Source of the DNA: an uncultured Planctomycetia bacterium
Lineage (GTDB): Bacteria; Omnitrophota; Gorgyraeia; Duberdicusellales; 4484-171
Assembly (NCBI GenBank): GCA_964629785.1
Contig: CAZVRU010000005.1
Coordinates: 27,225 to 90,615, forward strand
Direction: 5' to 3'
DNA length: 63,391 nucleotides
Shown: positions 3,782 through 62,509 of the stretch, in pieces
Position numbering within the stretch: position 1 is the first letter of the stretch
How the letters are laid out: every line of letters starts with the position of its first letter
Position numbers and translations under genes: made by a program
The notes under the pieces: generated by a model
What the model was told of the DNA's origin: nothing
Database searches by the model: none
Seen by the model: only the letters and a program-made list of their open reading frames with translations

Positions 3782-5293
3782 ATGAAGGTAATATTAGCAG
3801 GATTCAATGTCGATACCACGGTCTTAAATGAGCTGGAGAAAAGTGTTGGGAAGAGGGAAGACATCACGCCTGAGGTGCTGTCTGCTGCCTATGCCCGTAT
3901 CAGCCGCGATCCGCGGCCGGTCGATGAAATAAGAAAAGATGCCCGCAGTGAAGTTGAACGGTCCCGCAAGTCAAATTCCACGATCATTTTTAAAATGGGT
4001 CACCATTCGGTTGCCGAGCACGCAGTGTTCAATCTCGATGTTATCGGCGTATCCCGTTATGCCATGGAAGAACTGGAGAAGTTCCGCCTTTGTTCCTACA
4101 CGGAAAAATCCCAGCGTTATATTACTCTGGATAAAGATCATGTGATCCCTGCCGAGATCAAAGACACGGATCTGGAGAAGAAGTTCGTGTCCATGATCAA
4201 AGAACAGAACAAAGCCTATTTCGAATTTTTCGAAAAGCTTAAAGAATATGTATTCAAAAAATACTCTTGTCTGGCCGCAGATCCCAAAAATCATAATCTT
4301 CTCGAAGGATGGGCAAAAGAGGATGCCCGTTATATCACAGCCCTGGCTACCGAATCGCAGGCCGGTCAGACCATCAATGCCCGCAACCTGGAACTTTTAC
4401 TGCGGCGTTTCGCGTCTCATCCGCTCGATGAGGTGAGAAAACTGGGCCGGGCCATATATGAGCAGATCCATGAAGTAGCGCCTTCAATAGTCATTTTTCA
4501 TGAAGCCAATGACCGTGACCGGAATACTTATCCTGAATTGCAAAAACTGGCACGGGAATTGATAAAAGGCGCTTCTCCCAAGCCTGCTGCTTCATCCCAG
4601 GAAATACAGTTGGTCGAATATACTGCCGACGGCGATGCCCTGGTAGCGGCAGCCCTGCTGCACAGCGGTTCGGGGCTCACCTATGCCAAATGCAAGGATC
4701 TTATCGGCAATTTTTCCCAGGAAACCAAGGCCAGGATCTTTAAAGCTGCCTGGAAGAATATGCAGTTCTATGACACGATGCTGCGTGAATTCGAGTACGT
4801 CAATCTTACTTTCAATGTCGTGTTGTCGGCGGCCTGCTTCGGTCAGCTGAAACGCCACCGTATGTCCACGATAACTGCCCAGAACTATGATCCTTCTCTG
4901 GGCCTGACTGTTCCCGAATCGATAAAGGAAATAGGCGAAGATAAAAAATTCCTGGAGATCGCTGAAAAGAGCAGCGAGGTCTATGAAGAGATCAATAAGC
5001 GGTTTTCCCTGGCTGCGCCGTATATCCTTACCAATGCCCATCGTAAACGGGTATTGATGAGGCTAAATGCCCGGGAGTTGTACCATGTTTCGCGTCTGCG
5101 GGAAGATGCCCATGCCCAGTGGGATATACAGAATGTTTCCCGGTCGATGATCGATCAGGCCAAAAAGATCATGCCGCTTACCTTTGCTCTGGCCGGCGGC
5201 AAAGACCGCTATAACGATATTTATCAAAATATATTCGGGACATTGCCCAGGGTAACGCAGGTTGAATTACCCCGGGCCCGCACCATTAAATAA
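3782..5293 (+). CDS. thyX: FAD-dependent thymidylate synthase, tandem two-domain form
   Basis: GHHSVAEH, RLCSYTEKSQRY and NARNL in the first half; LKRHRMST and NARELYH...AQWDI in the second half; 503 aa. Confidence 0.85.
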   Translation: MKVILAGFNVDTTVLNELEKSVGKREDITPEVLSAAYARISRDPRPVDEIRKDARSEVERSRKSNSTIIFKMGHHSVAEHAVFNLDVIGVSRYAMEELEKFRLCSYTEKSQRYITLDKDHVIPAEIKDTDLEKKFVSMIKEQNKAYFEFFEKLKEYVFKKYSCLAADPKNHNLLEGWAKEDARYITALATESQAGQTINARNLELLLRRFASHPLDEVRKLGRAIYEQIHEVAPSIVIFHEANDRDRNTYPELQKLARELIKGASPKPAASSQEIQLVEYTADGDALVAAALLHSGSGLTYAKCKDLIGNFSQETKARIFKAAWKNMQFYDTMLREFEYVNLTFNVVLSAACFGQLKRHRMSTITAQNYDPSLGLTVPESIKEIGEDKKFLEIAEKSSEVYEEINKRFSLAAPYILTNAHRKRVLMRLNARELYHVSRLREDAHAQWDIQNVSRSMIDQAKKIMPLTFALAGGKDRYNDIYQNIFGTLPRVTQVELPRARTIK

Positions 5294-5416
5294 CTGCCTG
5301 CCTTTTTTTGCCGGATAAAAATAAGCAAAGCATTTCTTGATTACTCGCGTAGTTTTGCTAAAATTTGTTTAGATCACGGAATCTCTGCGGCAATTTTTTT
5401 TATCTGACGGTAGAGT

Positions 5417-7897
5417 ATGGAAAAGAAAAAACGTAGTCCCAGCTGGGTCAATATTTACAAAGACATGAGCGCTGCCGGTCTGAAGCGGTCCTTTCTTGCC
5501 CGGCGTCAGTATTCCCTGGCCAAAGACGATTATGCCGCTACTCTGAACGACGATTTCATGGCACTGGCCATTGCCGTGCGCGACCGGCTTATTGAAAGAT
5601 GGATCAATACTCAGCAGAAATATCACCGTGAGAACGTGAAGCGTGTCTATTATCTCTCCATGGAATTTCTCATCGGCCGTTTGCTGGGTAACAATATTAT
5701 GAACCTGCAGATATGGGGAGAGGCTGCCGCGGCTATGGAAGAATTGGGCCTGAATCTCGAAGACCTGAGGGACTGCGAAGCCGATGCCGGATTGGGTAAC
5801 GGCGGACTGGGCCGGCTTGCCGCCTGCGTGCTTGATTCTCTGGCGACTCTGGGGATACCGGCCGGAGGTTACGGCATACGTTATGAGTACGGCCTGTTCA
5901 ATCAGAAAATCGTCAACGGTTACCAGGTAGAATCCCTGGATGAGTGGCTTAGTAAAGGGAATCCCTGGGAGTTCCCCCGCCAGGAATACACGGTACGGGT
6001 GAAGTTCTACGGTCATACCTATATGTTCCGCGATGCCCAGGGAAAGCTGCGCGTCAAGTGGGTCGATACCGAGGATGTCCTGGCCATGCCTTATGATATA
6101 CCGGTTGCCGGTTACAACAATGATGTGGTAAATAACCTTCGTTTATGGTCGGCGCGCAGTACCGAGGAATTCGATCTTCAGTATTTCAATTACGGCGATT
6201 ATGAAGGAGCTGTATATAAAAAAGTGCTTTCCGAAAATATCACCAAAGTACTTTATCCCAATGACACAGTAAATCCGGGCAAAGAATTACGTTTAAAACA
6301 GGAATATTTTCTCACGGCTGCTTCGATAGCCGATATTATCCGCCGCTTTAAGGCCGAGAACCACGATCTGAGAGATTTTCCGGAAAAAATAGCGATCCAG
6401 CTCAATGATACTCATCCTTCACTGGCCATAGTGGAATTTATGCGCGTACTTGTAGATGAAGAAAATATCGACTGGGATACTGCCTGGGATGTGACAGTGC
6501 GGACTTTCGCCTACACTAATCATACTGTAATGCCCGAAGCCCTGGAATGCTGGCCGATACCGCTGTTCGAAGCGATACTGCCCAGACATATGCAATTGAT
6601 ATATGAGATCAACATGCGTTTTCTGCGCCGGGTGTCCCGCCTTTTCCCCGGGGATAATGACCGGCTGCGCCGCATGTCGATCATCGAAGAAGGCATTCCC
6701 AAGAAAGTACGCATGGCCCATCTTTCCATCGTGGGCGCGCATTCGGTAAACGGCGTTTCGCTCATGCACAGCGAGCTGCTGAGAAAAGATATTTTTCGTG
6801 ATTTTAACGATGTTTTTCCTGAACGTTTCAACAACAAGACCAACGGTGTGACCCCGCGCCGCTGGCTGCGTAAGACCAATACCCGTCTTTCATCTCTGAT
6901 CAGCGAAGCTATCGGAGACAAATGGGTCACTGATCTGGGAGAACTGCAGAAACTTTCCCGGTTTGTCGACGACAGTTCTTTCTGTCAGAAATGGCAGGAA
7001 GTCAAAAAAAGTAACAAAAAAGATTTTGCCGGATATATACGCAAGACTACGGGGATAGAGATAAATCCGGAATCGATTTTCGATGTCCAGGTAAAGAGGA
7101 TCCACGAGTATAAACGGCAGGCATTGTTCGGTCTGTTCATTATCTCGCAGTATCTAAAATTGAAAAAAGACCCTGCCGCGCCGTTTATCCCCCGCACCTT
7201 TATCGTGGGCGGCAAAGCTGCGCCTGGCTATATCATGGCCAAATTGATAATAAAATTTATCAACAATATCGCCGACGCGGTAAATAACGATCCGCTGGTA
7301 AAAGATAAGCTGAAAGTAGTTTTTGTCGAGGATTACCGTGTATCGGTTGCCGAAAAAATATTCCCGGCCACTGACCTTTCCGAGCAGATTTCCACTGCCG
7401 GCACCGAAGCGTCGGGTACCGGCTGCATGAAGATGATGATCAACGGTGCTTTGACCATCGGCACCTATGACGGGGCAAACATGGAGATGGCCGGGGCCGT
7501 AGGCAGCGATAATATTTTCATGTTCGGCCGGAAAGCGCCGGAATTAAGAGCCCTGCGGGAAAAAGGATATGATCCCCGCCGTTATATCGAAAACAACGAA
7601 ATACTGCGGGAAGTGGTAAGATTGATCCAGCATAACTTTTTTTCCCCGGTGAACTATAATCTGTTCGCTCCCATAGTAGGCAGTATCTACGATAACGATC
7701 CTTTTTTTATCTGCGCCGATTTCGAAAGTTACTGCGCGGCGCAGGAAAAGGTTTCCGGGGTCTATGCCGACCAGGCTCTCTGGACAAAAAAATCGCTCAT
7801 CAATGTTTCCTGCTCCGGACCTTTTTCCATTGACCGCACCGTACGGGAATATGCCCGCGATATCTGGAATTTACCGGTGCCTTTTCTTTCCCGCTAG
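5417..7897 (+). CDS. glgP: Glycogen/starch phosphorylase
   Basis: GLGNGGLGRLAAC, LNDTHP, YTNHT, QVKRIHEYKRQ, EASGTGCMK (PLP lysine). Confidence 0.97.
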   Translation: MEKKKRSPSWVNIYKDMSAAGLKRSFLARRQYSLAKDDYAATLNDDFMALAIAVRDRLIERWINTQQKYHRENVKRVYYLSMEFLIGRLLGNNIMNLQIWGEAAAAMEELGLNLEDLRDCEADAGLGNGGLGRLAACVLDSLATLGIPAGGYGIRYEYGLFNQKIVNGYQVESLDEWLSKGNPWEFPRQEYTVRVKFYGHTYMFRDAQGKLRVKWVDTEDVLAMPYDIPVAGYNNDVVNNLRLWSARSTEEFDLQYFNYGDYEGAVYKKVLSENITKVLYPNDTVNPGKELRLKQEYFLTAASIADIIRRFKAENHDLRDFPEKIAIQLNDTHPSLAIVEFMRVLVDEENIDWDTAWDVTVRTFAYTNHTVMPEALECWPIPLFEAILPRHMQLIYEINMRFLRRVSRLFPGDNDRLRRMSIIEEGIPKKVRMAHLSIVGAHSVNGVSLMHSELLRKDIFRDFNDVFPERFNNKTNGVTPRRWLRKTNTRLSSLISEAIGDKWVTDLGELQKLSRFVDDSSFCQKWQEVKKSNKKDFAGYIRKTTGIEINPESIFDVQVKRIHEYKRQALFGLFIISQYLKLKKDPAAPFIPRTFIVGGKAAPGYIMAKLIIKFINNIADAVNNDPLVKDKLKVVFVEDYRVSVAEKIFPATDLSEQISTAGTEASGTGCMKMMINGALTIGTYDGANMEMAGAVGSDNIFMFGRKAPELRALREKGYDPRRYIENNEILREVVRLIQHNFFSPVNYNLFAPIVGSIYDNDPFFICADFESYCAAQEKVSGVYADQALWTKKSLINVSCSGPFSIDRTVREYARDIWNLPVPFLSR

Positions 7898-8884: not shown

Positions 8885-8960
8885 GACGTCCGTTTTGTCC
8901 TTCGGCAAGCTCAGGACACGCTAAGACGTTCGCTCCCCGCGGTCGCTAAGACGAAGGAGG
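8881..8960. repeat. Intergenic heptamer/palindrome mosaic
   Basis: GTGAGAC GTCC, GTCCTTCGGCAAGCTCAGGAC, then a 36-bp unit (8919-8954) 35/36 identical to 1732-1767. Confidence 0.85.
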
Positions 8961-8967
8961 GTATAAG

Positions 8968-13069: not shown

Positions 13070-13501
13070 TCAGCTGCCATGACCGTTTTCTTTTACCGGA
13101 GAACGGGCCTTCTTTTTTTCTGAGCGTATTTTTTTATCCCGAAGAATCTTTTCTTTGGCCCGTTTAGAACGTTTTCTTTTCTGTCTTTTTATTTTAGCAA
13201 TACGCTTTTCTTCGGCGCTTTTTTTGCCGATAAGCATTCGTTCTATCTTGTCGGTAAGGTTCCGCCGGGCCAGGAAACGGTTCAGCGCCTGAGAACGTTC
13301 TTTCTGGCATTTCACTTCCAGTCCGGTAGGCAGATGTTTCAGATATACGCAGGTAGAGGTCTTGTTCACGTTCTGCCCGCCGTGTCCGCCGGAACGGATA
13401 AAACGTTCGATCAGGTCGTCCTCTTTTATGCCCAGTTGTTCCATCTTTTTTTGCAGGGCTTTCTCTTTTTCGGCGCGCACCCCGTATTTTAAAAAATTCA
13501 T
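13070..13501 (-). CDS. arfB: Alternative ribosome rescue peptidyl-tRNA hydrolase
   Basis: RSGGHGGQNVNK GGQ motif, CQKERSQALNR, long basic C-terminal tail; true start ATG at 13501 with GGGGAG SD (the ORF-track start at 13813 is spurious). Confidence 0.9.
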   Translation of the reverse strand: MNFLKYGVRAEKEKALQKKMEQLGIKEDDLIERFIRSGGHGGQNVNKTSTCVYLKHLPTGLEVKCQKERSQALNRFLARRNLTDKIERMLIGKKSAEEKRIAKIKRQKRKRSKRAKEKILRDKKIRSEKKKARSPVKENGHGS

Positions 13502-13577
13502 GAAAATATCCTCCCCCCATATCATATCACAGAATAGAAAGCTGAAAAATGCCTGCGGCCAGAGGATTTTTCCGGGG

Positions 13578-13606
13578 TTGACGCGGGTAAGGCATAAGAG
13601 TATGAT
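13578..13606 (+). promoter_or_regulatory. Sigma70-type promoter
   Basis: TTGACG-17 bp-TATGAT upstream of CDS 13665, back-to-back with arfB. Confidence 0.6.
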
Positions 13607-13664
13607 TTTAAGTATAGTATTCAGACGATGATCGGGATTCGAGACCCGGGAAGGGAGAGGATAT

Positions 13665-13916
13665 ATGGACGCTGAACAGCAGAAAATAACCGAACTGGCC
13701 GAACAGAACATAAAGATTTCCCGCGCCCTGATGGATATTGCCGAGGCAGTGAAAAAGCTGGATATGGTCATCAGCGTTTTATCGGAAAAAACCGCGGTCA
13801 ATACCTCGATCATCGAAAATATACTGAAAGAAAAACTTCACCTGTCGCAGCCGGAAATAAATGTGTTGCTGGAAGAGGCCCGGCAAAATTACCGGCAACA
13901 GGGACAGACCGGCTGA
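13665..13916 (+). CDS. Hypothetical coiled-coil protein
   Basis: 83 aa, GAGGA SD, heptad-like amphipathic helices. Confidence 0.6.
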   Translation: MDAEQQKITELAEQNIKISRALMDIAEAVKKLDMVISVLSEKTAVNTSIIENILKEKLHLSQPEINVLLEEARQNYRQQGQTG

Positions 13917-14051: not shown

Positions 14052-14861
14052 ATGGAGGAGATGTGGGCTAAGATCTATGAATACGGAATGCTTTACGGTT
14101 TGAGCCTGCTGGCCGCGATCGTTATCTTTGTCGTAGGTAAATGGCTGGCCCATCTTATAGCCGGACTTATTGAAAAATTGCTCAACAAGGCCAATGTGGA
14201 TAAGACTCTGACCAAGTTCGTAAGGAATATGGTCTATGCCGCTTTGCTGGTTTTTGTCATTATCGCGGCATTAGGCAAGCTGGGAGTTCAGACTACTTCT
14301 TTTATCGCGGTGATCGGTGCTGCCGGCCTGGCAGTAGGCCTGGCATTGCAGGGGTCGCTTTCCAATTTCGCGGCCGGGGTTTTGTTGATTTTGTTCAAGC
14401 CGTTCAAAGTAGGGGATTTTATCTCAGCTGCCGGGACTCTGGGAACTGTCAGGGAAATACAGATATTCTGTACTGTTCTGGATCATTTCGATAACCGGCG
14501 GATCATCGTTCCCAATTCTAAAATTACCGGCGACAACATAACGAATTTCAGCGCGATCGAAAAAAGGAGAATCGACCTGGTGTTCGGTATTTCTTACAGC
14601 GATAATATTAAGACCGCGAAAGAAGCTCTGGAAAAAGTCGTTGCTTCTGATCCGCGTGTTCTGAAAGATCCCAAACCGGTCATTGCCGTTTCGGAATTGG
14701 CCGACAGCAGTGTCAACCTGGTATGCCGGCCCTGGGTAAAGCCCGGCGATTACTGGGATGTTTATTTCGATACTCTGGAGAAAGGCAAGCTGGAATTAGA
14801 AAAGAACGGGATTACTATTCCTTTTCCCCAGCGCGATATTCATATGTTCCAGGAAAAATGA
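14052..14861 (+). CDS. mscS: Small-conductance mechanosensitive channel
   Basis: IGAAGLAVGLALQGSLSNFAAG, PFKVGD, IVPNS, IPFPQRD; AAGGAGG SD. Confidence 0.95.
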   Translation: MEEMWAKIYEYGMLYGLSLLAAIVIFVVGKWLAHLIAGLIEKLLNKANVDKTLTKFVRNMVYAALLVFVIIAALGKLGVQTTSFIAVIGAAGLAVGLALQGSLSNFAAGVLLILFKPFKVGDFISAAGTLGTVREIQIFCTVLDHFDNRRIIVPNSKITGDNITNFSAIEKRRIDLVFGISYSDNIKTAKEALEKVVASDPRVLKDPKPVIAVSELADSSVNLVCRPWVKPGDYWDVYFDTLEKGKLELEKNGITIPFPQRDIHMFQEK

Positions 14862-14876
14862 TCTTTTCGCCTTTTA

Positions 14877-14906
14877 AAAGGACGGCCGGAGAAACGGCCG
14901 TCCTTT
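14877..14906 (+). terminator. Stem-loop after mscS (possible terminator)
   Basis: 12-bp stem AAAGGACGGCCG-gagaaa-CGGCCGTCCTTT. Confidence 0.55.
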
Positions 14907-14921
14907 GCCGGGCGGATTTTC

Positions 14922-15620
14922 ATGAAAAAGATTTGTAAGCATCCCACCATAAAGTCCTGGGCCAAAGAAGACCGGCCCCGGGAAAAATTACTGGCCCAGG
15001 GAGAGCATCGGCTCGGCGATTCGGAGCTTCTGGCTATTTTGCTGCGTACCGGAAGCAAAGGAGAAAGCGCTCTCGACCTGGCCCGTCTGATCCTGCGAAA
15101 ATTCAAAACTTTCCGCGCCATGAGCCGCGCTGATAGCGACCAGTGGAAAGAGTTCAAAGGTCTGGGGGAAGCAAAGCTGGCTCAGTTGAAGGCTGCTATC
15201 GAAATAGGCCGGCGATTCGGTGAAGAGCAGATCAAAGAAAAAAAATTCAGAATAAAGTCTTCGCGCGACGCAGTCGATATACTTATGCCGCGGATGCGTG
15301 ATCTGAAAAAAGAACTGTTCAAGGTGCTGCTGCTGGACGCCAAGAACAAGGTCATCGATATCGCGGAAGTGGAAGAAGGAACAGTGAATTGCGCTTACCC
15401 TCTGCTGCGGGAGATTTTTCAGAAAGCCCTTCAGAATTGCGCGGTTTCCCTGATCTGCGCTCACAATCATCCTTCCGGCGATCCCGCGCCAAGCCGGGAA
15501 GACCGGGATTTTACCAGAGATCTCTGCCGGGCCGCCGGTATAATGCAGATGAAAATGCTGGATCATATCATCATCGGAGACAATAATTATTACAGTTTTG
15601 CCGATTCCGGGGAGCTGTAA
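14922..15620 (+). CDS. radC: RadC family protein (HhH plus JAB/MPN)
   Basis: DRPREKL, SELLAILLRTG, GLGEAK, AHNHPSGDP.PS.ED, LDHIIIG. Confidence 0.93.
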   Translation: MKKICKHPTIKSWAKEDRPREKLLAQGEHRLGDSELLAILLRTGSKGESALDLARLILRKFKTFRAMSRADSDQWKEFKGLGEAKLAQLKAAIEIGRRFGEEQIKEKKFRIKSSRDAVDILMPRMRDLKKELFKVLLLDAKNKVIDIAEVEEGTVNCAYPLLREIFQKALQNCAVSLICAHNHPSGDPAPSREDRDFTRDLCRAAGIMQMKMLDHIIIGDNNYYSFADSGEL

Positions 15621-15870
15621 AATTTAGTCGATAGTCGATGGCCGATAGTCGATAGTAGAAATGAGAAGATGAGAAATGAGTTGGGAGTCAGGAGTTCGGA
15701 GTAGAAAATTTTTACGCGTCCTTCGTCCCTCATCCCAGCGCAGTGGTCGTTTCACGTCTTACGTTTTGGCTAAGAGCTAACAGCCTGCCTCGCGGCAAGG
15801 CGGGCCAAGAGCTAAGAGCCGGAGCGCGCCGTAGGCGGCTTTCGGACTCTCTGCTCTCTACTTTTGGAAA
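15621..15870. repeat. Large intergenic heptamer/palindrome mosaic
   Basis: TAGTCGA x5 degenerate (15625-15659), ATGAG-type units, GGAGT-type units, CGTCCTT/CGTCCCT, CTAAGAG units split by CCTGCCTCGCGGCAAGGCGGG (15784-15804), CGCC-GTA-GGCG (15827-15837), CTCTCTG/CTCTCTA. Confidence 0.9.
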
Positions 15871-15936
15871 AATAAAGTGTTTACTCGGGTCAGGGGAGGA
15901 GTATAATAATTTCTTTTTAATTATGTGAGATAAAAT

Positions 15937-21107: not shown

Positions 21108-24100
21108 ATGAAAATCGCTAAAAAGATCGGTGTTGTATATTTTGTCAGCGCGGTGCTTATGACTATCATCGCCCTGACGATCATTTATCTTATAACCAGA
21201 AATGCCTTCAAAGAATCGATGGGAAATCATCTCGCGTCTCTGGTCAGGTCGCGAGCTCATCATGCCGTTACCTATCTTGATGCCAGTGAGGAGTCGGTAA
21301 AACAATTGTCCAAGAGCATTCTTATCAAAAGGATTCTCAGTATACCGGCCAGTTCGCGGGAGTACGGGATTTTAAAAGAAGAGGTAATGGAACGGATAAA
21401 TGATACAGTAGCGGCAAAAAAGGATCTTTTAGATATCGATATAACAAATGCTCAGGGTATCGTAGTGGCTTCCACCAATTACCGGCATAGCGGCAGGCCG
21501 CGCCGGATGAGCGGCGGGCGTTTGCGGCAGCACGGCAGGATTTTGATCGAGGATGTGTACTGGGACCCCGAAGAAGAGAAAGGGCTTATGGGGTTTGCCG
21601 CCCCGGTCGAAGATAAAAATGAGATCCGGGGGATGGTGTATATGAAATTCCGGCTGGACACTATCGAGGAAATAGTCGGTGATCTGACCGGGATGGGTGA
21701 AAGCGGCGAAGCATATCTGATCAACGAAAACGGGTACATGATCACTCCTTCCCGGTTCATGGAAAATACCTTTCTTAAGGTGGGGATCGGAAGTCAAAAA
21801 GAAATGGCCTGTTTCGACCGGGCCGATGCTTCTGTTTACGATTTGAGATCATGTGCAGATTACCGGGGAGTGAAGGTAGTGGGAGTCTATACTGCCATTC
21901 CCGAACTGAAATGGACGCTTGTCTCCGAGATAGAGGCAAAAGAAGCATGGTCGCTTCTGGGCCGGATACGGGGAATGCTTATCGCTCTGACAGCGATAAT
22001 CCCTTTGCTGGCCTGGGCCATCGGACGCCTTCTGGCTCTGCTGATCATGAAACCTTTGCAGGCTTTGCGGGTAGGGGCGGAAATAATCGGCGACGGTAAT
22101 CTTTATTACACTACCAATATAAGGACCGACGATGAAATAGGAGAACTTTCCCAGGCTTTCGACGAGATGACCGAACACCTGCGTAAGACCACCATATCCC
22201 GCGATTACATCAATAATATCATCGAAAGCATGAATTACAGCCTGATCGTAGTGTCGCCGGATTGTATGATCGAGATGGTCAACGAGGCTACCTTAAAGAT
22301 GCTCGATTATCAACGGGAAGAATTGCTGGGGAAAAAACTGGATTCGGTATTTGCCGGCACTGATGAAGAAAGATGTATTTGCGAGGAGATGAAAGAACTG
22401 ATCCGCCAGGGAAAGATCGTCCGCTATGAACGGTTTTACAAGACAAAAAAGGGAAAGCTTATTCCGGTACTGTTTTCCAGCACGGTGCTTAAAGAAAAAG
22501 GCGCGCGACACGATGTCACGGCAGGCATACTCTGCGTGGCCGAAGATATCAGCGAACGGAAACAGGCCCAGGAGGCGCTGCGCGAGAGTGAGCGCCGTTT
22601 GTCCGAAGTGGTGCAGGGTATTACTTTGCCGATCTTCGTGATCGACAAAGAGCATCGCATCATGTATTGGAACCGGGCCTGCGAAAAACTGACCGGTTTG
22701 CCGGCCGAAGAAATGACAGGTACGAGCGATCAATGGAAAGCTTTTTATGCCGGTCCCCGCCCCTGCCTGGCAGATCTTTTGCTGGAAGACGATCCGGAAG
22801 AGAAGATCAGAATCCATTATCAGAGCGCCTACTGGATAAAAAGAAAAACCCCGCGCGGGGCCTATGAGATCGAGGACTTTTTTTCCGGTCTGGGAGAAGA
22901 CGGTAAATGGCTGCACGGTACGGCCTCATTGATCAGGGATTCGAAAGGCGAAGCTATCGCGGTAATCGAGACAGTAGAGGATATAACCGAACGAAAACAT
23001 GCCGAAGAAGAGATCAGAGAAAGCCAGCGCCGGACCAGCGAGATAATCCAGGGCTGTGCCATTCCTTTGTTCGTCATCGATAAAGATCACCGGGTAACTC
23101 ACTGGAACCGGGCCTGCGAAAAACTGACCGGTTTTTCGGCGGAAGAAATAGTCGGCACCAGAAAACACTGGATCCCTTTTTACAGCGGCCCCCGTCCCTG
23201 CCTGGCCGATCTGGTCCTGGACCGTATTTCCGAGGATGTGATCCGTTCTTTTTACCAGGGCGCGGATTTTGCCGTGTCCGATCTTATGGAAAGATCATAT
23301 GACGTGGAGATGTTCTTTTCCGGTCTGGGCGAACAGGGCTGCTGGCTGCGGTTTACTGCCGCGCTGATCAGGGATTCGAAAGGCGAAGTCATTGCTGCTA
23401 TCGAGACTCTGGAAGATATCACCGAACGCAAAAAACTGTTCAAATTGAAAGACGAATTCGTCAGTAACGTGTCTCATGAACTGCGCACGCCGCTCACTAC
23501 TATTCGCGAGGCGGTTGCCCAGATGAACGAAGGTATTTTAGGCCAGACCACTACTTTGCAGAGAGAAGTCCTTTCCATAGGCCTTTCCGATATCGACCGT
23601 CTGACCAGGATCATAAATAATCTGCTTGATATATCGAGGATCGAAGCAGGCGAAGTGGAGATCAGGCGGGAACCGGTCGATATCGTTTCTTTGACAAAGG
23701 AGGTCATAGTCCTTTTCACCCCTCAGGCTCAGTCCCGAAAACTGGAACTGCGTCATTCTTTTTCCCGGGAAAAGATGATGATCTATATCGACCGGGACAA
23801 GATCAAACAGGTATTTACCAATCTGGTCGGCAATGCCATGAAATTTACTTCGCAGGGATATATCGAAGTCGTCGTGAAAGAAAAAGACAGTATAATCGAA
23901 TGTAAAGTGCGGGACAGCGGTATCGGTATCAGCGAGCATGACCTGCCTTTTTTGTTCAGTAAATTTTATCAGATCGGCAGGGGAGCAGGACCCGGCGAAA
24001 AAGGAACGGGACTGGGCCTTTCCATTGCCAAAGGGATAGTCGAACTGCACGGCGGCGGCATCTTTGTGGAAAGCAGGCCGGAGAAAGGTACGGTGTTCAC

Positions 24101-29060: not shown

Positions 29061-30128
<1,068 letters not shown>

Positions 30129-31384: not shown

Positions 31385-31389
31385 AAGCA

Positions 31390-31515
31390 GGGTGTAGGGG
31401 TTAGCGGTCAGGGGTTAGGGCCGCACTTCGTGCGGAAGGGAAAATATATTAACTCTTTACTTGTAACTTGTAATTTTTTTCTGTAAACCATCGACTATAG
31501 ACTATCGACCATAGA
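31390..31515. repeat. Heptamer mosaic between pgk and tpiA
   Basis: GGGTGTA GGGGTTA GCGGTCA GGGGTTA, hairpin CCGCAC-TTC-GTGCGG (31421-31435), TACTTGT AACTTGT, CCATCGA CTATAGA CTATCGA CCATAGA (31488-31515). Confidence 0.88.
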
Positions 31516-31550
31516 CGTATAACGAAGATACATTAAGAAGGAGAGAACAG

Positions 31551-35399: not shown

Positions 35400-35612
35400 G
35401 ATAAATGTCAGACGTGAGACGTCCGTCCTGCCCGCCATTTTCAATGGCGAGGCGGACTAAGACGAAGGACGATACCGCTTTGCGGAGTTATAAATTATGA
35501 ATTAGAGTATTGTCAATGGTCGATAGCCGATAGTAAGAGACATGCCATTTAAATTATAATCGCCATCGACAATAGACCATAGACTGTCGACTGTAAACTG
35601 CCGAAGGCAAAA
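35400..35612. repeat. Heptamer mosaic between oppB and oppC
   Basis: GTCAGAC GTGAGAC, CCTGCC[CGCCATT-TTC-AATGGCG]AGGCGG (35427-35455), TAAGACG AAGGACG, CCGC-TTT-GCGG, TGGTCGA TAGCCGA, CCATCGA/CCATAGA/CTGTCGA run, TGCC-GAA-GGCA (35599-35609). Confidence 0.88.
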
Positions 35613-35614
35613 TT

Positions 35615-36676: not shown

Positions 36677-36829
36677 TCGTATATAGTTTACCCCACATTT
36701 CCCTGTGGGTAATAACGGATACTGCGTGCGGAAGCGCGCCGAGGATAAAATATAAGAAAAATAAAAGGACGCGAGGATCAAGTATCTAACATCTTTCTCT
36801 CTACTCTCTACTTGCTACTCGCTACTTTT
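36674..36829. repeat. Heptamer mosaic between oppC and oppD
   Basis: CCCACA-TTTCCC-TGTGGG hairpin, then CTCTCTA CTCTCTA CTTGCTA CTCGCTA CTTTT (36797-36829). Confidence 0.8.
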
Positions 36830-53102: not shown

Positions 53103-53285
53103 CGTTTAGGGGCCGGGGGTCAGGCCCGTCTTGCCGGCGAGGCAGGGTTGCGACTGCGTCGCAGAAAAGGATTAATATGGATAAATTTTGAGAGAGATGG
53201 TTAATAACAATATAAAGCGTAATATGTATCTGGAATTTTTTTTTAGCGGGGCTTAACCCTAAACCCTATCCGCTATCCGCTATAA
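53093..53285. repeat. Heptamer mosaic between ispD and ispF
   Basis: G-rich arm TAGCGTT TAGGGGC, 22-bp palindrome 53125-53146, GCGAC-TGC-GTCGC (53150-53162), AT-rich core, C-rich arm AACCCTA AACCCTA TCCGCTA TCCGCTA (53255-53282). Confidence 0.88.
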
Positions 53286-53298
53286 CCTGTATTTGATT

Positions 53299-57654: not shown

Positions 57655-59176
57655 AGCTTATATCACTACGCCTCTTTATTATGTCAACGGTTCTCCCCAT
57701 ATAGGACACGCCTACAGTACTATCTGCGCCGATACTTATGCCCGCTTTAACCGGCTGTGCGGCCGCGAAGTCTTTTTTCTTACCGGTACTGACGAGCACG
57801 GTGAAAAGATACGCAAAGCTGCCGAGGCATCCGCTAAAGAGCCCCGCGAGTTTGTCGACGCGATCGTGGAAAATTTCCGGGATCTCTGGAAAACCCTGGA
57901 TATCTCATATGATTTCTTCATTCGTACCACGGACCGGGATCATGTCTCGGTAGTACAAAAAGCGGTTCAAAACCTTTATGAGAAAGGGGATATCTATAAA
58001 TCGGTGTATACAGGATATTATTGTGTGCACTGCGAGTCTTTTTTCAGCGAATCGCAGGTGAAAGATTCGGGCTATCTCTGCTGTGACTGCAAACGTCCTC
58101 TGGAAGAAATAGAAGAAGCCAATTATTTTTTCCGTTTATCCAGATATGAGCAATGGCTCACTGATTATTTAAAGGATAACCCCGGTTTCATTTTTCCCGC
58201 GATACGTTACAACGAAGTGACCGGATTTCTCAAAAACAACCGTCTTGATGATCTCTGCATTTCCCGTCCCAAAAAAAGGGTCAGCTGGGGCATAGAACTT
58301 CCTTTCGACACCGATTATATAATCTATGTCTGGTTCGATGCTTTGCTTAACTATATCAGCGCTCTTGGTTACGGGAGCGGGGAAAAGCGATTCGAAAAGT
58401 GGTGGCCGGCTGATGTTCAGTTCATGGCCAAAGATATTTTGCGTCAGCATGCGGTGTTCTGGCCGGTCATGCTTCATGCTCTGGGTATCGATCCGCCGCG
58501 TCTGGTCTGTGCTCACGGCTGGTGGCTGGTAAAAGAAGAGAAAATGTCCAAATCAAAAGGCAATGTAATCAATCCCTATGATCTGGTAAACGAATTCGGC
58601 AGAGATGCTTTGCGCTATTTTCTTCTGCGGGAGATTTCTTTCGGCATGGACGGAAGTTTTTCCCGTCAGGCTCTGATCAGCCGGATCAATTCCGACCTGG
58701 CCAATGATCTGGGTAATCTGGTGTTCAGAGTGCTGAATATGGCCGAGAAATATTTTTCCGGCCGGCTGGCCTCTTCCCGTACCGACATCCCCGAAGTTTT
58801 CAAAATCTATACCGAAAGCCTGGCCGAAAAATACGCGGCCCGGATGGAATCTCTTGATTTTTCCGGGGCTCTGGAAGAGGTGTGGAATTTCGTCAAGGTC
58901 ATGAATAAATTCATAGAAGACACCAAACCCTGGGCATTATGGAAAGAAAAAAAGCAGGACGAGCTGGCCTGGTTCATGCGTTCTCTGGTCGAAGGCATAA
59001 AGATAGTAGCGGTTTTGATCTCCCCGGTCATGCCCGATACCGCTTTTTCGATTTTTCGGCAGATCGGCAGCCCGCGGGAAAAGACCGGATTAAAGATCGA
59101 AGATGCCCGATGGACTTCGGCTGAATACAGGATCAGCAAAGAGGCCCCTTTATTTCCCCGGATAGATGTTGATTGA
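57647..59176 (+). CDS. metG: Methionine--tRNA ligase (short monomeric form)
   Basis: PHIGHAY, TGTDEHG, YVWFDAL, KMSKS; no C-terminal tRNA-binding domain. Confidence 0.96.
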   Translation: MNKAYITTPLYYVNGSPHIGHAYSTICADTYARFNRLCGREVFFLTGTDEHGEKIRKAAEASAKEPREFVDAIVENFRDLWKTLDISYDFFIRTTDRDHVSVVQKAVQNLYEKGDIYKSVYTGYYCVHCESFFSESQVKDSGYLCCDCKRPLEEIEEANYFFRLSRYEQWLTDYLKDNPGFIFPAIRYNEVTGFLKNNRLDDLCISRPKKRVSWGIELPFDTDYIIYVWFDALLNYISALGYGSGEKRFEKWWPADVQFMAKDILRQHAVFWPVMLHALGIDPPRLVCAHGWWLVKEEKMSKSKGNVINPYDLVNEFGRDALRYFLLREISFGMDGSFSRQALISRINSDLANDLGNLVFRVLNMAEKYFSGRLASSRTDIPEVFKIYTESLAEKYAARMESLDFSGALEEVWNFVKVMNKFIEDTKPWALWKEKKQDELAWFMRSLVEGIKIVAVLISPVMPDTAFSIFRQIGSPREKTGLKIEDARWTSAEYRISKEAPLFPRIDVD

Positions 59177-59927
59177 TACTCATTGTCACATCAATTCTCT
59201 GGCTGACGACCGGATCGATGAGCTTCGCGCCATCAGTCCGGAAGATAAAATTTTTGTCGATGTAAGTATCGACCCTCATTCTTCGGAAAGATCCCTGGCT
59301 CTGGCCGGCTCGATGCCCTGTGTTTATTCCTGTCTGGGCTTTCATCCTTTCAGTATTGATCAATATCAGGAAAAAACAGCGGAAAAATATGCCGGATATA
59401 TCCGCAATAACAGTAAGGTGATCGGTATCGGTGAAGTAGGCCTTGACTGCACGGCATCGTTTGCCATGGAAGATCAGGTGAAGATACTGGAAAAGTTCAT
59501 CGATCTGGCCGGGCAGAACCAACTGCCCCTGGCGATCCATAACCGTCTAAATTCTTTTTTGATCTTCGAGGTGCTGGACCGGTTTATGAAGACTTATGAT
59601 AAGGTAGTGTTCCATTGTTTTTCCCAGGACAGTGAATTCCTGCGGCGGATAATCGACAAGAACGGTATGGTATCTTTTTCTCTGAACATCCTGCGCCGCA
59701 AAAAAAAGATCGTCGATGCCCTGCAAGAGATACCGCTGGATAATCTTATCCTGGAGACCGATTCTCCTTATATGAGGATCGAGGGACAGCCTTCGCATCC
59801 CCTGGATATCGAAAAGGTATATGAGTTTGTGTCCCGGGAAAAAGACCTTGAACGAGCGGCACTGGAAAAGAAGATAAGGGAAAACGTCAGCCGGATATTC
59901 AGGATACAGGCAGAGGACAGGAAGTAG
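59166..59927 (+). CDS. tatD: TatD family nuclease
   Basis: DTHCH, GFHP, IGEVGLD, IHNR, FHCFS, LETDSPY. Confidence 0.93.
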   Translation: MLIDTHCHINSLADDRIDELRAISPEDKIFVDVSIDPHSSERSLALAGSMPCVYSCLGFHPFSIDQYQEKTAEKYAGYIRNNSKVIGIGEVGLDCTASFAMEDQVKILEKFIDLAGQNQLPLAIHNRLNSFLIFEVLDRFMKTYDKVVFHCFSQDSEFLRRIIDKNGMVSFSLNILRRKKKIVDALQEIPLDNLILETDSPYMRIEGQPSHPLDIEKVYEFVSREKDLERAALEKKIRENVSRIFRIQAEDRK

Positions 59928-60290
59928 AGGGTAGCCCTTCGACTTCGCTCAGGACAAGCAAGTAGAGAGTAGAGGGTAGAGAGTAGAGGGTAGAGGGTAG
60001 AGAGTGCCGCCTGCGGCACAGATCGAAGGACGAGGGATGACCGCTTCGCTAAGACGAGGGATGAGAAAAAATCGCAAATTGCAACCTGCCTCGACGGCAA
60101 GGCGGGAATCAGCATTGCAAAATGAGATATGAGAAGAGGAGAGATGAGAAATGAGTTTGGAGAAAGAAGAGTATTCTCTTTCAATTTATAACTCATGATT
60201 CATAATTTAAGTATTGACTATCGGCCATAGACCATCCCGATGCTGCGTTCGGGACGAGTAGACTATCGACCATGTATAGATATCGACTGA
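59920..60290. repeat. Composite heptamer/palindrome element upstream of mtnA
   Basis: CCCTTCGACTTCGCTCAGG, GTAGAG(A/G) x6 (59962-60003), GCC-TGC-GGC, GAAGGAC/GAGGGAT units, 22-bp palindrome 60085-60106, ATGAGA units, CATAATT units, CTATCG/CCATAGA units. Confidence 0.92.
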
Positions 60291-60312
60291 GAGTTAAAGA
60301 GAGAAATAAACT

Positions 60313-61365
60313 ATGCGAGCGATAAAGTTCAGAAATAACAGGCTGTTTTATCTGGATCAGACTTGTTTGCCGGTCAGAGAGGTATGGCAGGAGTGCCGCT
60401 CTCTGTCGGATGCGGTAGAGGCGATCAGACAACTTAAAGTGCGGGGCGCGCCGATGATCGGTGTGTTTGCCGCCTATTCTTTATATATCGCGGTTCGCGA
60501 TCGCCGGGACGAGTCGCCGGCTTCTCTTTTGAAGTATTTCGATAAAGCCTGTACTGCTTTGATCAAAAGCCGGCCTACGGCAGTAAATCTGGCCTGGGCT
60601 GTGGAAAGGGTTCGCGAAGCAGCAAAATCCTGCCGTAAGGAAAAAGTAAAAAAAGTGATCTCTACGGTTATCAGCGAGGCCAAGGCGATCGATCATCAGG
60701 ATGTAAAGCTTTGCGCCGCTATCGGTAAATATGGGCTAAAGCTTATCCGTTCCGGCGATGTTCTGCTGACCCACTGCAATGCCGGCCTTCTGGCCACTGC
60801 CGGTAACGGCACGGCTTTAGCGGTGATCTATGAGGCGGCCAGAAAGTTTAAAAATATCAGGGTCTATGCCGACGAGACAAGGCCGCTGCTGCAGGGAGCC
60901 CGTCTGACCTGCTGGGAACTTATGAAGAACAAAGTCGGGGTCACGCTTATCTGCGATAACATGGCTGCCGATCTCATGCGCCGCGGTCTGATCGATAAAA
61001 TAATCGTGGGCGCGGACCGGATCACGGCTCAGGGTGACGTAGCCAATAAGATCGGGACCTACGGTCTGGCAGTTAATGCTTTTTATCATAAAGTGCCTTT
61101 TTATGTGGCAGCCCCTTTTTCCACCTTTGATCTGACTATCGATAAGGGGGAAGATATACCTATCGAACAGCGCAGTGCCGGTGAAGTGCGCCGGATACTG
61201 GGAAAGCTTGCTGTTGCTCCCAGGGAAGTTCCGGTATATAATCCGGCTTTTGATGTGACGCCGCATAAGCTGATCACGGCTATTATTACCGACCGGGGCA
61301 TTATCAGGCCGCCGTTCAGTAAGAATATCAAAAGAATATTTTCGAATAAAAAAAGTGATATTTGA
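60313..61365 (+). CDS. mtnA: S-methyl-5-thioribose-1-phosphate isomerase
   Basis: VRGAP.IG, SRPTAVNL, THCNAG.LAT, ETRP.LQGARLT, ANKIGTY, NPAFDVTP. Confidence 0.95.
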   Translation: MRAIKFRNNRLFYLDQTCLPVREVWQECRSLSDAVEAIRQLKVRGAPMIGVFAAYSLYIAVRDRRDESPASLLKYFDKACTALIKSRPTAVNLAWAVERVREAAKSCRKEKVKKVISTVISEAKAIDHQDVKLCAAIGKYGLKLIRSGDVLLTHCNAGLLATAGNGTALAVIYEAARKFKNIRVYADETRPLLQGARLTCWELMKNKVGVTLICDNMAADLMRRGLIDKIIVGADRITAQGDVANKIGTYGLAVNAFYHKVPFYVAAPFSTFDLTIDKGEDIPIEQRSAGEVRRILGKLAVAPREVPVYNPAFDVTPHKLITAIITDRGIIRPPFSKNIKRIFSNKKSDI

Positions 61366-61368
61366 TGA

Positions 61369-61635
61369 GGAAGTAGCGGGTAGCCCTTCGACAGGCTCAG
61401 AACAAGCGGGTAGAGAGACCCGCCTGCGGCGCAGAAGTAAAAAGAAAAAAGGCAAAAGGCACTTGGGAAATTGCAAATTGTAAATTGTAACCTGCCTCGA
61501 CGGCAAGGCGGGAATTAGCATTGCAAAATTAAGATATAAGAAATGAGAGTATTCTCTTTTCAATTCATGACGCATAATTCGCAATTCATAATTTAAGTAT
61601 TGGCTATCGACCATCGACTATAGATTATAGACAAT
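61369..61635. repeat. Composite heptamer/palindrome element downstream of mtnA (homologous to 59920-60290)
   Basis: CCCTTCGACAGGCTCAGAAC, GCC-TGC-GGC, AAAAGG units, AAATTG units, 22-bp palindrome 61491-61512, CATAATT units, CTATCGA CCATCGA CTATAGA units. Confidence 0.92.
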
Positions 61636-61663
61636 TTAACTTATAACGTTTAAGATCAGAGCT

Positions 61664-62509
61664 ATGAATGAACTGCAGTGGGTAGAGTTTTTACGGAAAA
61701 AGAAAACGAATAATAAAAAGATCGTTGCCGGTATCGGCGATGATTGCGCGGTTATTCGGCAGGGAAAAGGTTATCTTTTATACAGCAGTGATCTTTTTAT
61801 CGAAAATGTCCATTTTGACAGAAAAAAGATGAGCTTTAAGGATATCGGACAGCGGGCCGCGGCCCGGGCCATGTCCGATATAGTTGCCTGCGGCGGCATC
61901 CCCAGGTATCTGGGGGTTTCCTGCGGCCGGCCCCGTTCCTGCCCGGCCGAAAGGCTTAAGAATGTGTACAGGGGTATCGAAGAGTACTGCAAAGGATATG
62001 ATGTAACTCTTATCGGCGGAGATACTTCCCTGGCTTCTGAACTGGTTTTTGATATCTGGGTAATAGGAGATACCGATAAATATGTTCTGCGCAGTACGGC
62101 CCGCGAGGGGGACGCGATCTTTGTTACCGGCCGGCTGGGCCGGCTCGCTTTCGATCAGGTGTTCGATCTGAGGGTCAGGGAGATCAGCCGGTTGACACAT
62201 GAATATAAGATAAATTCCCTGATCGATATTTCGGACGGGTTCATCATCGATCTTTTTCGTGTCCTGGAGGCCAGCGGCAAAGGCGCCTTGCTCTGCGCTG
62301 ACCGGCTTCCTTTGACCAGAGGCATGGATGATCTGTTCAGAGGGGAAGACTATGAATTGATATTTACCGTGGATAAAAAAGAAGATATGCGCCGGCTGAA
62401 AAAGAAATATTTTTATGTGGGAGATGTCACTGCGGCAAAAAAAGGCTATTGCCTGCGCCTGGGCAATGAAGTAAAAAAGATAGACGTTAAAGGGTATCTT
62501 CATTTTTAA
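61664..62509 (+). CDS. thiL: Thiamine-monophosphate kinase
   Basis: GIGDDCA, ENVHF, MSDIVACGG, IGGDT, DISDG, GEDYEL. Confidence 0.93.
   Translation: MNELQWVEFLRKKKTNNKKIVAGIGDDCAVIRQGKGYLLYSSDLFIENVHFDRKKMSFKDIGQRAAARAMSDIVACGGIPRYLGVSCGRPRSCPAERLKNVYRGIEEYCKGYDVTLIGGDTSLASELVFDIWVIGDTDKYVLRSTAREGDAIFVTGRLGRLAFDQVFDLRVREISRLTHEYKINSLIDISDGFIIDLFRVLEASGKGALLCADRLPLTRGMDDLFRGEDYELIFTVDKKEDMRRLKKKYFYVGDVTAAKKGYCLRLGNEVKKIDVKGYLHF

Follow-up and report, generated by a model that had tools for sequence, protein, structure and literature searches.

Mosaic repeats of small hairpins and heptanucleotide arrays fill both junctions around mtnA in a conserved Omnitrophota gene string

The window analysed here is a 63-kb stretch of contig CAZVRU010000005.1 (63,391 nucleotides; coordinates count from its first letter) from an uncultured bacterium, in which mtnA, the gene for S-methyl-5-thioribose-1-phosphate isomerase, lies between two spacers that resemble each other. 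On the plus strand, tatD, encoding a TatD/YchF-family hydrolase (59166-59927), is followed by mtnA (60313-61365; TIGR00512, 428 bits against a cut-off of 279) and by the thiamine-phosphate kinase gene thiL (61664-62509; TIGR01379, 194 bits against a cut-off of 184). The NCBIfam match of tsaE is likewise above its curated cut-off; tatD matches NCBIfam TIGR00010 at 8.6e-50, yet stays under the curated cut-off (169.5 versus 206 bits). The tatD-mtnA spacer measures 385 bp (59928-60312) and the mtnA-thiL spacer 298 bp (61366-61663). A search with MetRS, taking one genome per species, placed the window in Candidatus Omnitrophota, with best matches of 58-60% identity.

An initial annotation, made from the sequence alone, had described the spacers as two homologous composite elements in direct orientation, and direct reading of the sequence recovered every block match that it reported around mtnA. 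We compared the two spacers by pairwise alignment and blastn-short and found five colinear blocks common to both: 59929-59943 with 61378-61392 (15/15), 59995-60022 with 61408-61435 (25/28, 89%), 60076-60123 with 61482-61529 (46/48), 60168-60181 with 61546-61559 (14/14) and 60198-60228 with 61584-61614 (29/31). The window contains exactly two copies each of the 25-nt hairpin block and of the 19-nt ATTCATAATTTAAGTATTG block, for which shuffled sequences lead one to expect 0.00 and 0.01 occurrences, respectively. The colinear similarity of the two spacers is far beyond chance.

The upstream element (all features plus strand) opens with four GTAG/CAG-type heptads and block 1 (GTAGCCCTTCGACTTCGCTCAGGACAAGC), together spanning 59907-59959 and matching 61369-61407; a related copy lies at 1797-1860. 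The heptads, CAGGCAG AGGACAG GAAGTAG AGGGTAG, start at 59907, inside tatD, and encode a six-residue C-terminal extension of TatD (QAEDRK) together with its stop codon, both of which are lacking in the TatD of four relatives. An array of 6.4 AGTAGAG/GGTAGAG units (59961-60005; Tandem Repeats Finder [TRF] score, 69-83), with reverse-complement arrays at 36797-36827 and 15860-15875, leads into hairpin 1, GTGCCG-CCTG-CGGCAC (60004-60019; fold -10.4 kcal/mol, z -2.05), variants of which are found at 61419-61431, at 15825-15840 (reverse complement) and at 7999-8014 of L202, a contig from a relative. The duplicated linker GAAGGACGAGGGATGA / CGCTAAGACGAGGGATGA that follows (60020-60067) matches 1756-1771 and 8919-8958 and does not occur in the downstream copy. 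The hairpin-2 module (60069-60123) consists of AAATYGC units, the core CCTGCCTCGACGGCAAGGCGGG (60085-60106) and then AATCAGCATTGCAAAAT; it is 93% identical to 61475-61529 and folds with -17.2 kcal/mol (z -2.2), the core itself being 21-22 nt long with a 7-bp stem that includes one G.T/G.U pair. Beyond it lie an ATGAGAG array of 4.7 units (60122-60155, by TRF; the unit recurs at 15657-15687), a low-copy linker, AGAGTATTCTCTTT ... ATTCATAATTTAAGTATTG (60168-60228), which within the window is common only to 61546-61614, and CTATCGR/CCATAGA heptamer units (60216-60285) interrupted by the hairpin TCCCGATGCTGCGTTCGGGAC (60235-60255); L202 has a near-identical module at about 11030.

The downstream element (61366-61663, plus strand) carries block 1 at 61369-61407, then GGGTAGAGAG, the hairpin-1 variant at 61419-61431, the AAAAGGC and AAATTGT arrays, the hairpin-2 module at 61475-61529 (core 61491-61512), AGAGTATTCTCTTT at 61546, ATTCATAATTTAAGTATTG at 61584 and CTATCGA-type units at 61603-61635. 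As claimed earlier, heptamer copy number and unit type vary between the shared blocks: TRF counts 6.4 AGTAGAG units in the upstream copy against about 1.5 in the downstream one and 4.7 ATGAGAG units against about 1-2, while AAATTGT (3.3 units) and AAAAGGC (2 units) are present downstream only. The final 25-45 nt ahead of the mtnA and thiL start codons are unique sequence. At 300-400 bp, the composites have no terminal inverted repeats, and their ends are heptamer arrays.

Locally, the hairpins have moderate stability (z about -2), and minimum-energy folds of the whole spacers are no better than those of shuffled sequences (z +0.29 and -0.55). A strand-specific hairpin, suggested by the G.T wobble, was considered and dropped, as the module folds about as well on one strand as on the other. 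Rfam at gathering thresholds found only three tRNAs in the whole window, and a permissive scan of 59850-61720 gave one chance-level match. Two antisense open reading frames (ORFs) run through the repeat spacers, at 59768-60196 (minus strand, 142 amino acids) and 60817-61614 (minus strand, 265 amino acids); they are almost certainly spurious products of the repeats, and the heptamer arrays within them yield periodic peptides such as LLSTLYPLLSTLYSLL.

Almost every gene of the window is read from the plus strand, and many junctions contain spacers of 100-700 bp. Five of these spacers are colinear, one of them inverted, which bears out the earlier description of a composite element with a set module order and variable arrays: tatD-mtnA, mtnA-thiL, pgk-tpiA (31385-31530, plus strand, with GTAG/TTAG heptads, a UUCG-loop hairpin and a CCATCGA/CTATAGA array), oppB-oppC (35400-35614, plus strand) and radC-nhaP (15621-15880, minus strand, in reverse-complement orientation). 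Their common order runs from GTAG/TTAG-type heptads through hairpin 1 (GCCGCCTRCGGC), hairpin 2 and an AT-rich linker to a CTATCGA/CCATAGA array; the GTAG-containing heptads precede hairpin 1, not hairpin 2. Another mosaic spacer, at the ispD-ispF junction (53103-53292, plus strand), has a CTATCCG array and a reverse-orientation hairpin-2 variant at 53125-53146, and other spacers have one to three modules in common, in either orientation. By Pfam annotation, the mosaics lie within the conserved operons oppB/oppC/oppD, pgk/tpiA and ispD/ispF/cysS. More mosaic pieces were seen at 1701-1900 and 8885-8967, one between a gene and a tRNA and the other between PNPOx and PEBP genes, with CGCTAAGACG units, a CCGCC-TTTC-GGCGG hairpin and block-1-like TTCGAC...GCTCAG repeats.

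The non-coding DNA carries a signal of period seven. TRF returned 30 rows for the window, 18 of them with a period of 7, 14 or 21, and all of these arrays lie outside genes save one 21-nt row at the mtnA 3' end. Autocorrelation of non-coding DNA peaks at lags 7 (0.319), 14 (0.298) and 21 (0.276) against a background of about 0.26; coding DNA shows period 3 only. The hairpin-2 core has five copies or variants in the window, all intergenic, including reverse-oriented ones at 2267-2288 and 53125-53146, and each element contains single copies and no alternating pairs.

The initial annotation had suggested that mtnA could have been inserted as a cassette between tatD and thiL, a reading that gene order in relatives, the comparison on which that annotation had staked it, overturns. 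Four Omnitrophota relatives (contigs L002, L003, L004 and L202; MtnA identity, 59-63%) have retained the order PSP1-metG-tatD-(x)-mtnA-(x)-thiL-tsaE, all with mtnA between tatD and thiL and none with these spacers. In L004 tatD and mtnA abut, in L003 the mtnA-thiL gap is 12 bp, and in L002 and L003 a further DUF362/4Fe-4S-type ORF separates tatD from mtnA (Pfam from the context of L203). The nearest MtnA among 5.8 billion proteins, at 63% identity, is the one on L202, where the genes run cysS-tmk-holB-PSP1-metG-tatD-mtnA-thiL-tsaE-tsaB-alr and the tatD-mtnA and mtnA-thiL spacers, 169 and 100 bp long, are not related to the window's in sequence. The position of mtnA is thus ancestral, and the gene is not a mobile cassette.

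L202 and L004 are rich in heptamer arrays and hairpins, in the same style of spacer. At other junctions, L202 has modules that match the window, namely GTGCCGCCTGCGGCGG followed by TAGTCGA/TGGTCTA units, CCCCGATGCTTCATTCGGGAC, and TTCGAC...GCTCAG-ACAAG. From this, the repeat system predates its present copies, and the copies turn over. Mosaic spacers of 465-614 bp in L202 (7985-8598 and 10803-11267) hold modules nearly identical to those of the window, and on this sequence comparison the non-coding modules are better conserved than the surrounding proteins (about 60% identity). In L004, a RAYT-like ORF (IS200/Y1-type, judged by eye) at 14335-15370 lies between thiL and tsaE and interrupts the conserved gene string; a different palindrome, CCCTTAAAGTTACAAAACAGTTGACAACTGTTTTGTAACTTTAAGGG, stands on both sides of it. 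The mtnA-thiL spacer of L004 (13315-13492) is an unrelated heptamer element with a long inverted repeat, AAATCCG units on the left facing their reverse complement, CGGATTT, on the right.

The locus was found in one run from marine sediment (X1) and, with low depth, in two from anaerobic digesters (X2 and X3); depths are summed Logan contig depths, not raw reads. Single-copy depth in X1 is 31-41, with 35.3 for tatD, 40.6 for mtnA and 30.6 for thiL. Summed depths rise to 5400-6800 for the hairpin-2 core (5400-6200 against a single-copy 35-41 for the core of the upstream element), about 800-1300 for the 55-nt hairpin-2 module, about 900 for the GTAGAG array (about 24 times single-copy depth for the upstream AGTAGAG/GGTAGAG array), about 400 for block 1 (about 10 times for the upstream block) and about 250 for the CCCGATGC hairpin; hairpin TCCCGATGCTGCGTTCGGGAC stands at about 6 times. 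The hairpin-2 core is present in about 150 copies per genome equivalent in X1, and five core copies or variants per 63 kb extrapolate to the same order as this depth ratio. The one Logan contig with mtnA (L001) has both of its ends exactly inside the hairpin-2 core. A single low-depth X2 contig from a 95% similar strain is shorter by one 7-nt unit at 61602.

Over the low-copy 3' part (61544-61627) the X1 depth is 127, equal to the sum of 30.6, 40.6 and 55.9, which gives exactly three copies: the pair around mtnA and one more. The third copy, elsewhere in the source metagenome, is on a contig of 329 nt that shows 12 substitutions and 7 indels and runs on into unrelated sequence. Because this copy has diverged and is unrelated beyond the match, two apparent deletion joints, 60135>61540 and 60162>61599, are paralogues and not recombinants. 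A candidate circular joint, 61618>61340, was rejected: it comes from a single contig placed twice owing to the paralogy between the spacers.

We conclude that the two spacers are probably sister copies within a single subfamily of a non-coding mosaic repeat that occurs genome-wide and fills many gene junctions; they have the low-copy blocks in common and also the rarer AC loop of hairpin 2, which is seen in 9 of 121 instances elsewhere. These features, together with 93-96% identity of the flanking sequence over 48-55 nt, indicate recent common descent of both spacers and make it very unlikely that the two were assembled independently, without direct copying, from one pool of modules under a shared order "grammar". 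Independent assembly would suit the other spacers, which keep the order with different subsets of modules, and the X1 contigs in which the hairpin-2 module is followed by several alternative modules; the low-copy blocks, with only three copies in the metagenome, speak against it. We regard it as extremely unlikely that mtnA is a cassette inserted with or via the flanking repeats, or one regularly excised by recombination between them. The two repeats, in direct orientation, do enclose just one gene, no second methionine-salvage gene is close by, and their longest unbroken identity of 27 nt (within a 40/41 block) is near the minimum for RecA-dependent recombination. The conserved order at about 60% protein identity stands against insertion, as do the lack of paired attC core sites (RYYYAAC ... 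GTTRRRY) on either strand of either spacer, the lack of an integrase in the 63 kb and of terminal inverted repeats, and the occurrence of the same repeats beside many unrelated genes. Excision through the repeats, as proposed in the initial annotation, is disfavoured by an mtnA depth equal to that of its flanks and by the supposed deletion joints, which differ by 5-12 mismatches plus indels before entering unrelated sequence.

The spacers might instead be duplicated regulatory regions kept by selection to co-regulate mtnA and thiL, which we judge unlikely. The 3' blocks (AGAGTATTCTCTTT...CATAATTTAAGTATTG plus CTATCGA units) would then act as a common promoter, 5' untranslated region or protein-binding array, and the hairpins would end or stabilise the transcript of the upstream gene. 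The low-copy blocks, at 60-140 nt upstream of both start codons, do include a -10-like CATAAT, the Shine-Dalgarno sequences of mtnA and thiL are weak, and CYATMGA arrays, found in L202 too, immediately precede start codons in five or more spacers, in the manner of the Beggiatoaceae TAACTGA heptamers, which have been proposed as regulator sites (PMC4679880). However, sigma-70-like sites score at most 8.5 and 9.5 of 12, which is chance level, and one of the candidates is 7 nt from the ATG; within-operon mosaic spacers score 6.5-9.5 of 12 and evident operon starts 10-12.5. No T-tract terminators and no terminator-like sites on the plus strand were found within either spacer, and with consensus scans at chance level the candidate promoter and terminator functions were rejected. 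The whole-spacer folds, no better than those of shuffles, the inversion of one family member relative to its genes and the expression of the same genes in relatives without any spacer also argue against a regulatory role.

Under the sister-copy explanation, mtnA would have stayed put in an old string, metG-tatD-mtnA-thiL-tsaE, and both of its junctions would have been filled later. The repeat is a mosaic with a preferred polarity, running from a GTAG/TTAG-type 7-nt array through one or more small GC-rich hairpins and linker blocks to a CTATCGA/CCATAGA-type array, and is made of REP-like hairpins, period-7 arrays that gain and lose units, and a few low-copy linkers. One spacer may have been copied non-reciprocally from the other, or from a third copy, either by transposition-like insertion or by gene conversion for which the shared high-copy modules provided the seed. 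The arrays would then have diverged as units were gained and lost by slippage, and the upstream copy would have overrun the original tatD stop codon. Most likely the elements are passive inside a polycistronic transcript, as tolerated passengers.

Several observations weigh against this account. No RNA run contains the locus, so read-through transcription is presumed here; the summed metagenome depths may be inflated by copies from other organisms; and a composite lacks a clear target-site duplication of its own. The 63-kb window holds no enzyme that would mobilise the modules: Pfam and NCBIfam searches of its proteins gave no transposase, integrase or tyrosine recombinase, and neither Pfam nor tblastn with the L004 RAYT-like ORF found a RAYT, in a search covering 63 kb of the genome. 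Modules such as hairpin 1, CCCGATGCTKCRTTCGGGAC and the CYATMGA units are also conserved between genomes whose proteins are about 60% identical, which hints at a functional or recognition constraint that a purely neutral view does not explain.

The hairpin-2 core reaches far beyond this genome. An exact-match search of metagenome contigs for the pattern CCTGCCTCG-N0-3-GGCAAGGCGGG found the 21-22-nt core in at least 120 contigs (L082-L201) from many samples, with GC contents of 0.29-0.66 and unrelated flanks. Three phyla are represented: Omnitrophota (the window), Candidatus Curtissbacteria (L176) and Phycisphaerae (L157). The core was absent from all 80 metG loci of Omnitrophota relatives, Bacillota and Atribacterota, even with three substitutions allowed. 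The remaining modules of the element do not occur in the at least 120 core loci, leaving the hairpin-2 core as the only cross-lineage part. No candidate mobilising enzyme is enriched beside the core in 120 loci, where only housekeeping and type IX secretion system (T9SS)-type proteins cluster, and the loci, all retrieved by exact match, held too few variants to reveal compensatory variation in the stem.

The core and the heptamers are also related in position. The 7 nt to the left and right of the hairpin have a similarity of 0.359 against 0.265 in shuffled pairings (z about 6.6); k = 7 shows much the greatest excess, k = 8 has a smaller one (z about 3.4) and other lengths are near baseline, and in 13 of 121 instances the 7-nt flanks agree with at most one mismatch. 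Fifteen instances lie in phase inside heptamer arrays, 13 of them in the 21-nt form, which is exactly three heptads long; in-register examples are L086, L087, L094, L109, L123, L146, L148, L197 and 15769-15817 of the window. In the last of these, the hairpin-2 copy at 15783-15803 sits in phase inside a (CTAAGAG)4 array, in the context CTAAGAG CTAACAG, hairpin, CCAAGAG CTAAGAG. The in-register placement and the like 7-nt flanks suggest a mechanistic link between the hairpin and the heptamer arrays.

By a crude ORF call, 31 instances of the core fall in long ORFs, 28 of them in sense orientation; among the window's own genes there is no in-gene core. In metagenome contigs, in-frame 21-nt inserts were found in genes for TatD, TsaD, MurD, a release factor, alanine racemase, PGK and SerRS (L176:6249-7052 on the minus strand, L160, L193, L168, L146, L132 and L119), adding the peptide LPRGKAG, PASRQGG or CLAARRA depending on the frame. 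Three Curtissbacteria TatD genes can be compared at the same site: an insert is lacking in L206 (5084-5899), the 21-nt core (LPRGKAG) is found in L176 and a related perfect palindrome, CCTGCCTGCCGGCAGGCAGG, in L205 (4419-5414). The L205 gene contains additional palindromic in-frame inserts.

It is possible, and we suggest it only tentatively, that the core CCTGCCT-CGNGGCA-AGGCGGG (21 nt, three heptads) is a mobile palindromic element of minimal size that crosses phyla, namely Omnitrophota, Patescibacteria/Curtissbacteria and Planctomycetota/Phycisphaerae, and seeds heptamer arrays. Such a core would insert between genes, in frame into essential genes and in register into 7-nt arrays; insertion or replication bypass would duplicate its 7-nt flanks and so seed or extend the arrays, and the mosaics on either side of mtnA would have built up in this way. 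That the hairpin causes the 7-nt duplications is our hypothesis.

Elsewhere in the window, a thyX-like ORF (3782-5293) encodes 503 amino acids, roughly double the usual length of ThyX, with two Thy1 domain matches, and may be a tandem-domain or fused ThyX. A 247-amino-acid ORF at 13070-13813, one of very few minus-strand ORFs in a crude map and the only one of them with a Pfam match, has the RF-1 (GGQ) domain only; it may encode an ArfB-like protein or else belong to a release factor gene whose 5' part requires a frameshift. Direct repeats of 245 and 135 nt at 22542-23432, spaced by 435 nt and 70-75% identical, lie inside the gene for a 1173-amino-acid sensor histidine kinase and are probably duplicated PAS domains. 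The gap gene, which had been suspected of being broken, is intact at 29124-30128.

The elements work like the mosaics of REP/BIME (repetitive extragenic palindrome/bacterial interspersed mosaic element) and BOX type combined with heptanucleotide simple-sequence repeats. As in the REP/BIME systems of Escherichia coli and other Proteobacteria, short GC-rich imperfect palindromes, in about 10^2 copies per genome and in either orientation, lie mostly in extragenic DNA, inside operons or after genes, and are joined with other short conserved motifs into variable mosaics. Here, however, the sequences are unrelated, the hairpins are single and do not form alternating inverted pairs (REPINs), 7-nt tandem arrays lacking in BIMEs are present and no RAYT was seen in the 63-kb window. 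REP families are normally specific to a species or genus, whereas the hairpin-2 core is common to several phyla. REP systems also have a conserved 5' GTAG beside the palindrome and a cognate RAYT (Y1 HUH transposase) gene with REPs on its flanks. With BOX of Streptococcus pneumoniae (boxA-boxB(n)-boxC) the elements have in common a modular build of fixed order, a variable number of internal units, an intergenic location, about 100 or more copies and no coding capacity. They differ in sequence and phylum and in having heptamer microsatellites, several different arrays per element, in place of the 45-nt boxB; from phylum and composition we presume that homology to boxA/B/C is unlikely.

Heptanucleotide repeats such as the cyanobacterial STRR (short tandemly repeated repetitive) sequences, the Beggiatoaceae TAACTGA repeats and the long simple-sequence repeats of Mrazek et al. 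2007 (summarised in PMC4679880) are mostly intergenic, often just upstream of starts, and patchy by lineage, and among long simple-sequence repeats of prokaryotes a 7-nt period has been described as the commonest class. Like these, the arrays of the window are enriched in non-coding DNA and polymorphic in unit number, the latter judged from the single low-depth X2 contig. Unlike them, many heptamers coexist, in a preferred order and interleaved with conserved hairpins, one of which is exactly 3 x 7 nt long and in phase with the arrays. The hairpin-2 core recalls the Rickettsia palindromic elements (RPE) in being a small palindrome found between genes and in frame in conserved genes, where in metagenome contigs it adds a short peptide and is present or absent among orthologues; RPE are 100-150 bp long and confined to Rickettsia, whereas the core measures 21-22 nt and spans three phyla or more. 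A single, promoterless-looking gene between similar structured direct repeats is reminiscent of an integron cassette, but attC core sites, intI and a cassette array are missing, the gene order is ancient and the repeats are genome-wide. MITEs (inverted-repeat transposable elements of miniature size) differ from the composites, which have no terminal inverted repeats. In a non-exhaustive literature search we found no description of a mosaic architecture of hairpins and ordered heptamers, nothing relevant on Omnitrophota repeats and no paper with the insert peptides; the short DNA strings matched only unrelated, mostly eukaryotic, papers.

These results remove the tempting reading of mtnA as a mobile cassette and make it an old resident of a conserved housekeeping string. 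The mosaics split conserved operons and turn over quickly between relatives. They break short-read assemblies, as the Logan contig ending exactly in the hairpin illustrates, and they create spurious ORFs and lengthen real ones, such as the TatD C-terminus, and therefore matter for the annotation of metagenome-assembled genomes. The cross-phylum core could open to direct test an old question, namely what makes 7-nt tandem repeats so common in some bacteria, given its in-frame insertions with presence and absence among orthologues and its in-phase position inside 7-nt arrays. If the mobile-core hypothesis is true, it would join the cross-lineage GC-rich palindromes of uncultured bacteria with the prevalence of period-7 microsatellites.

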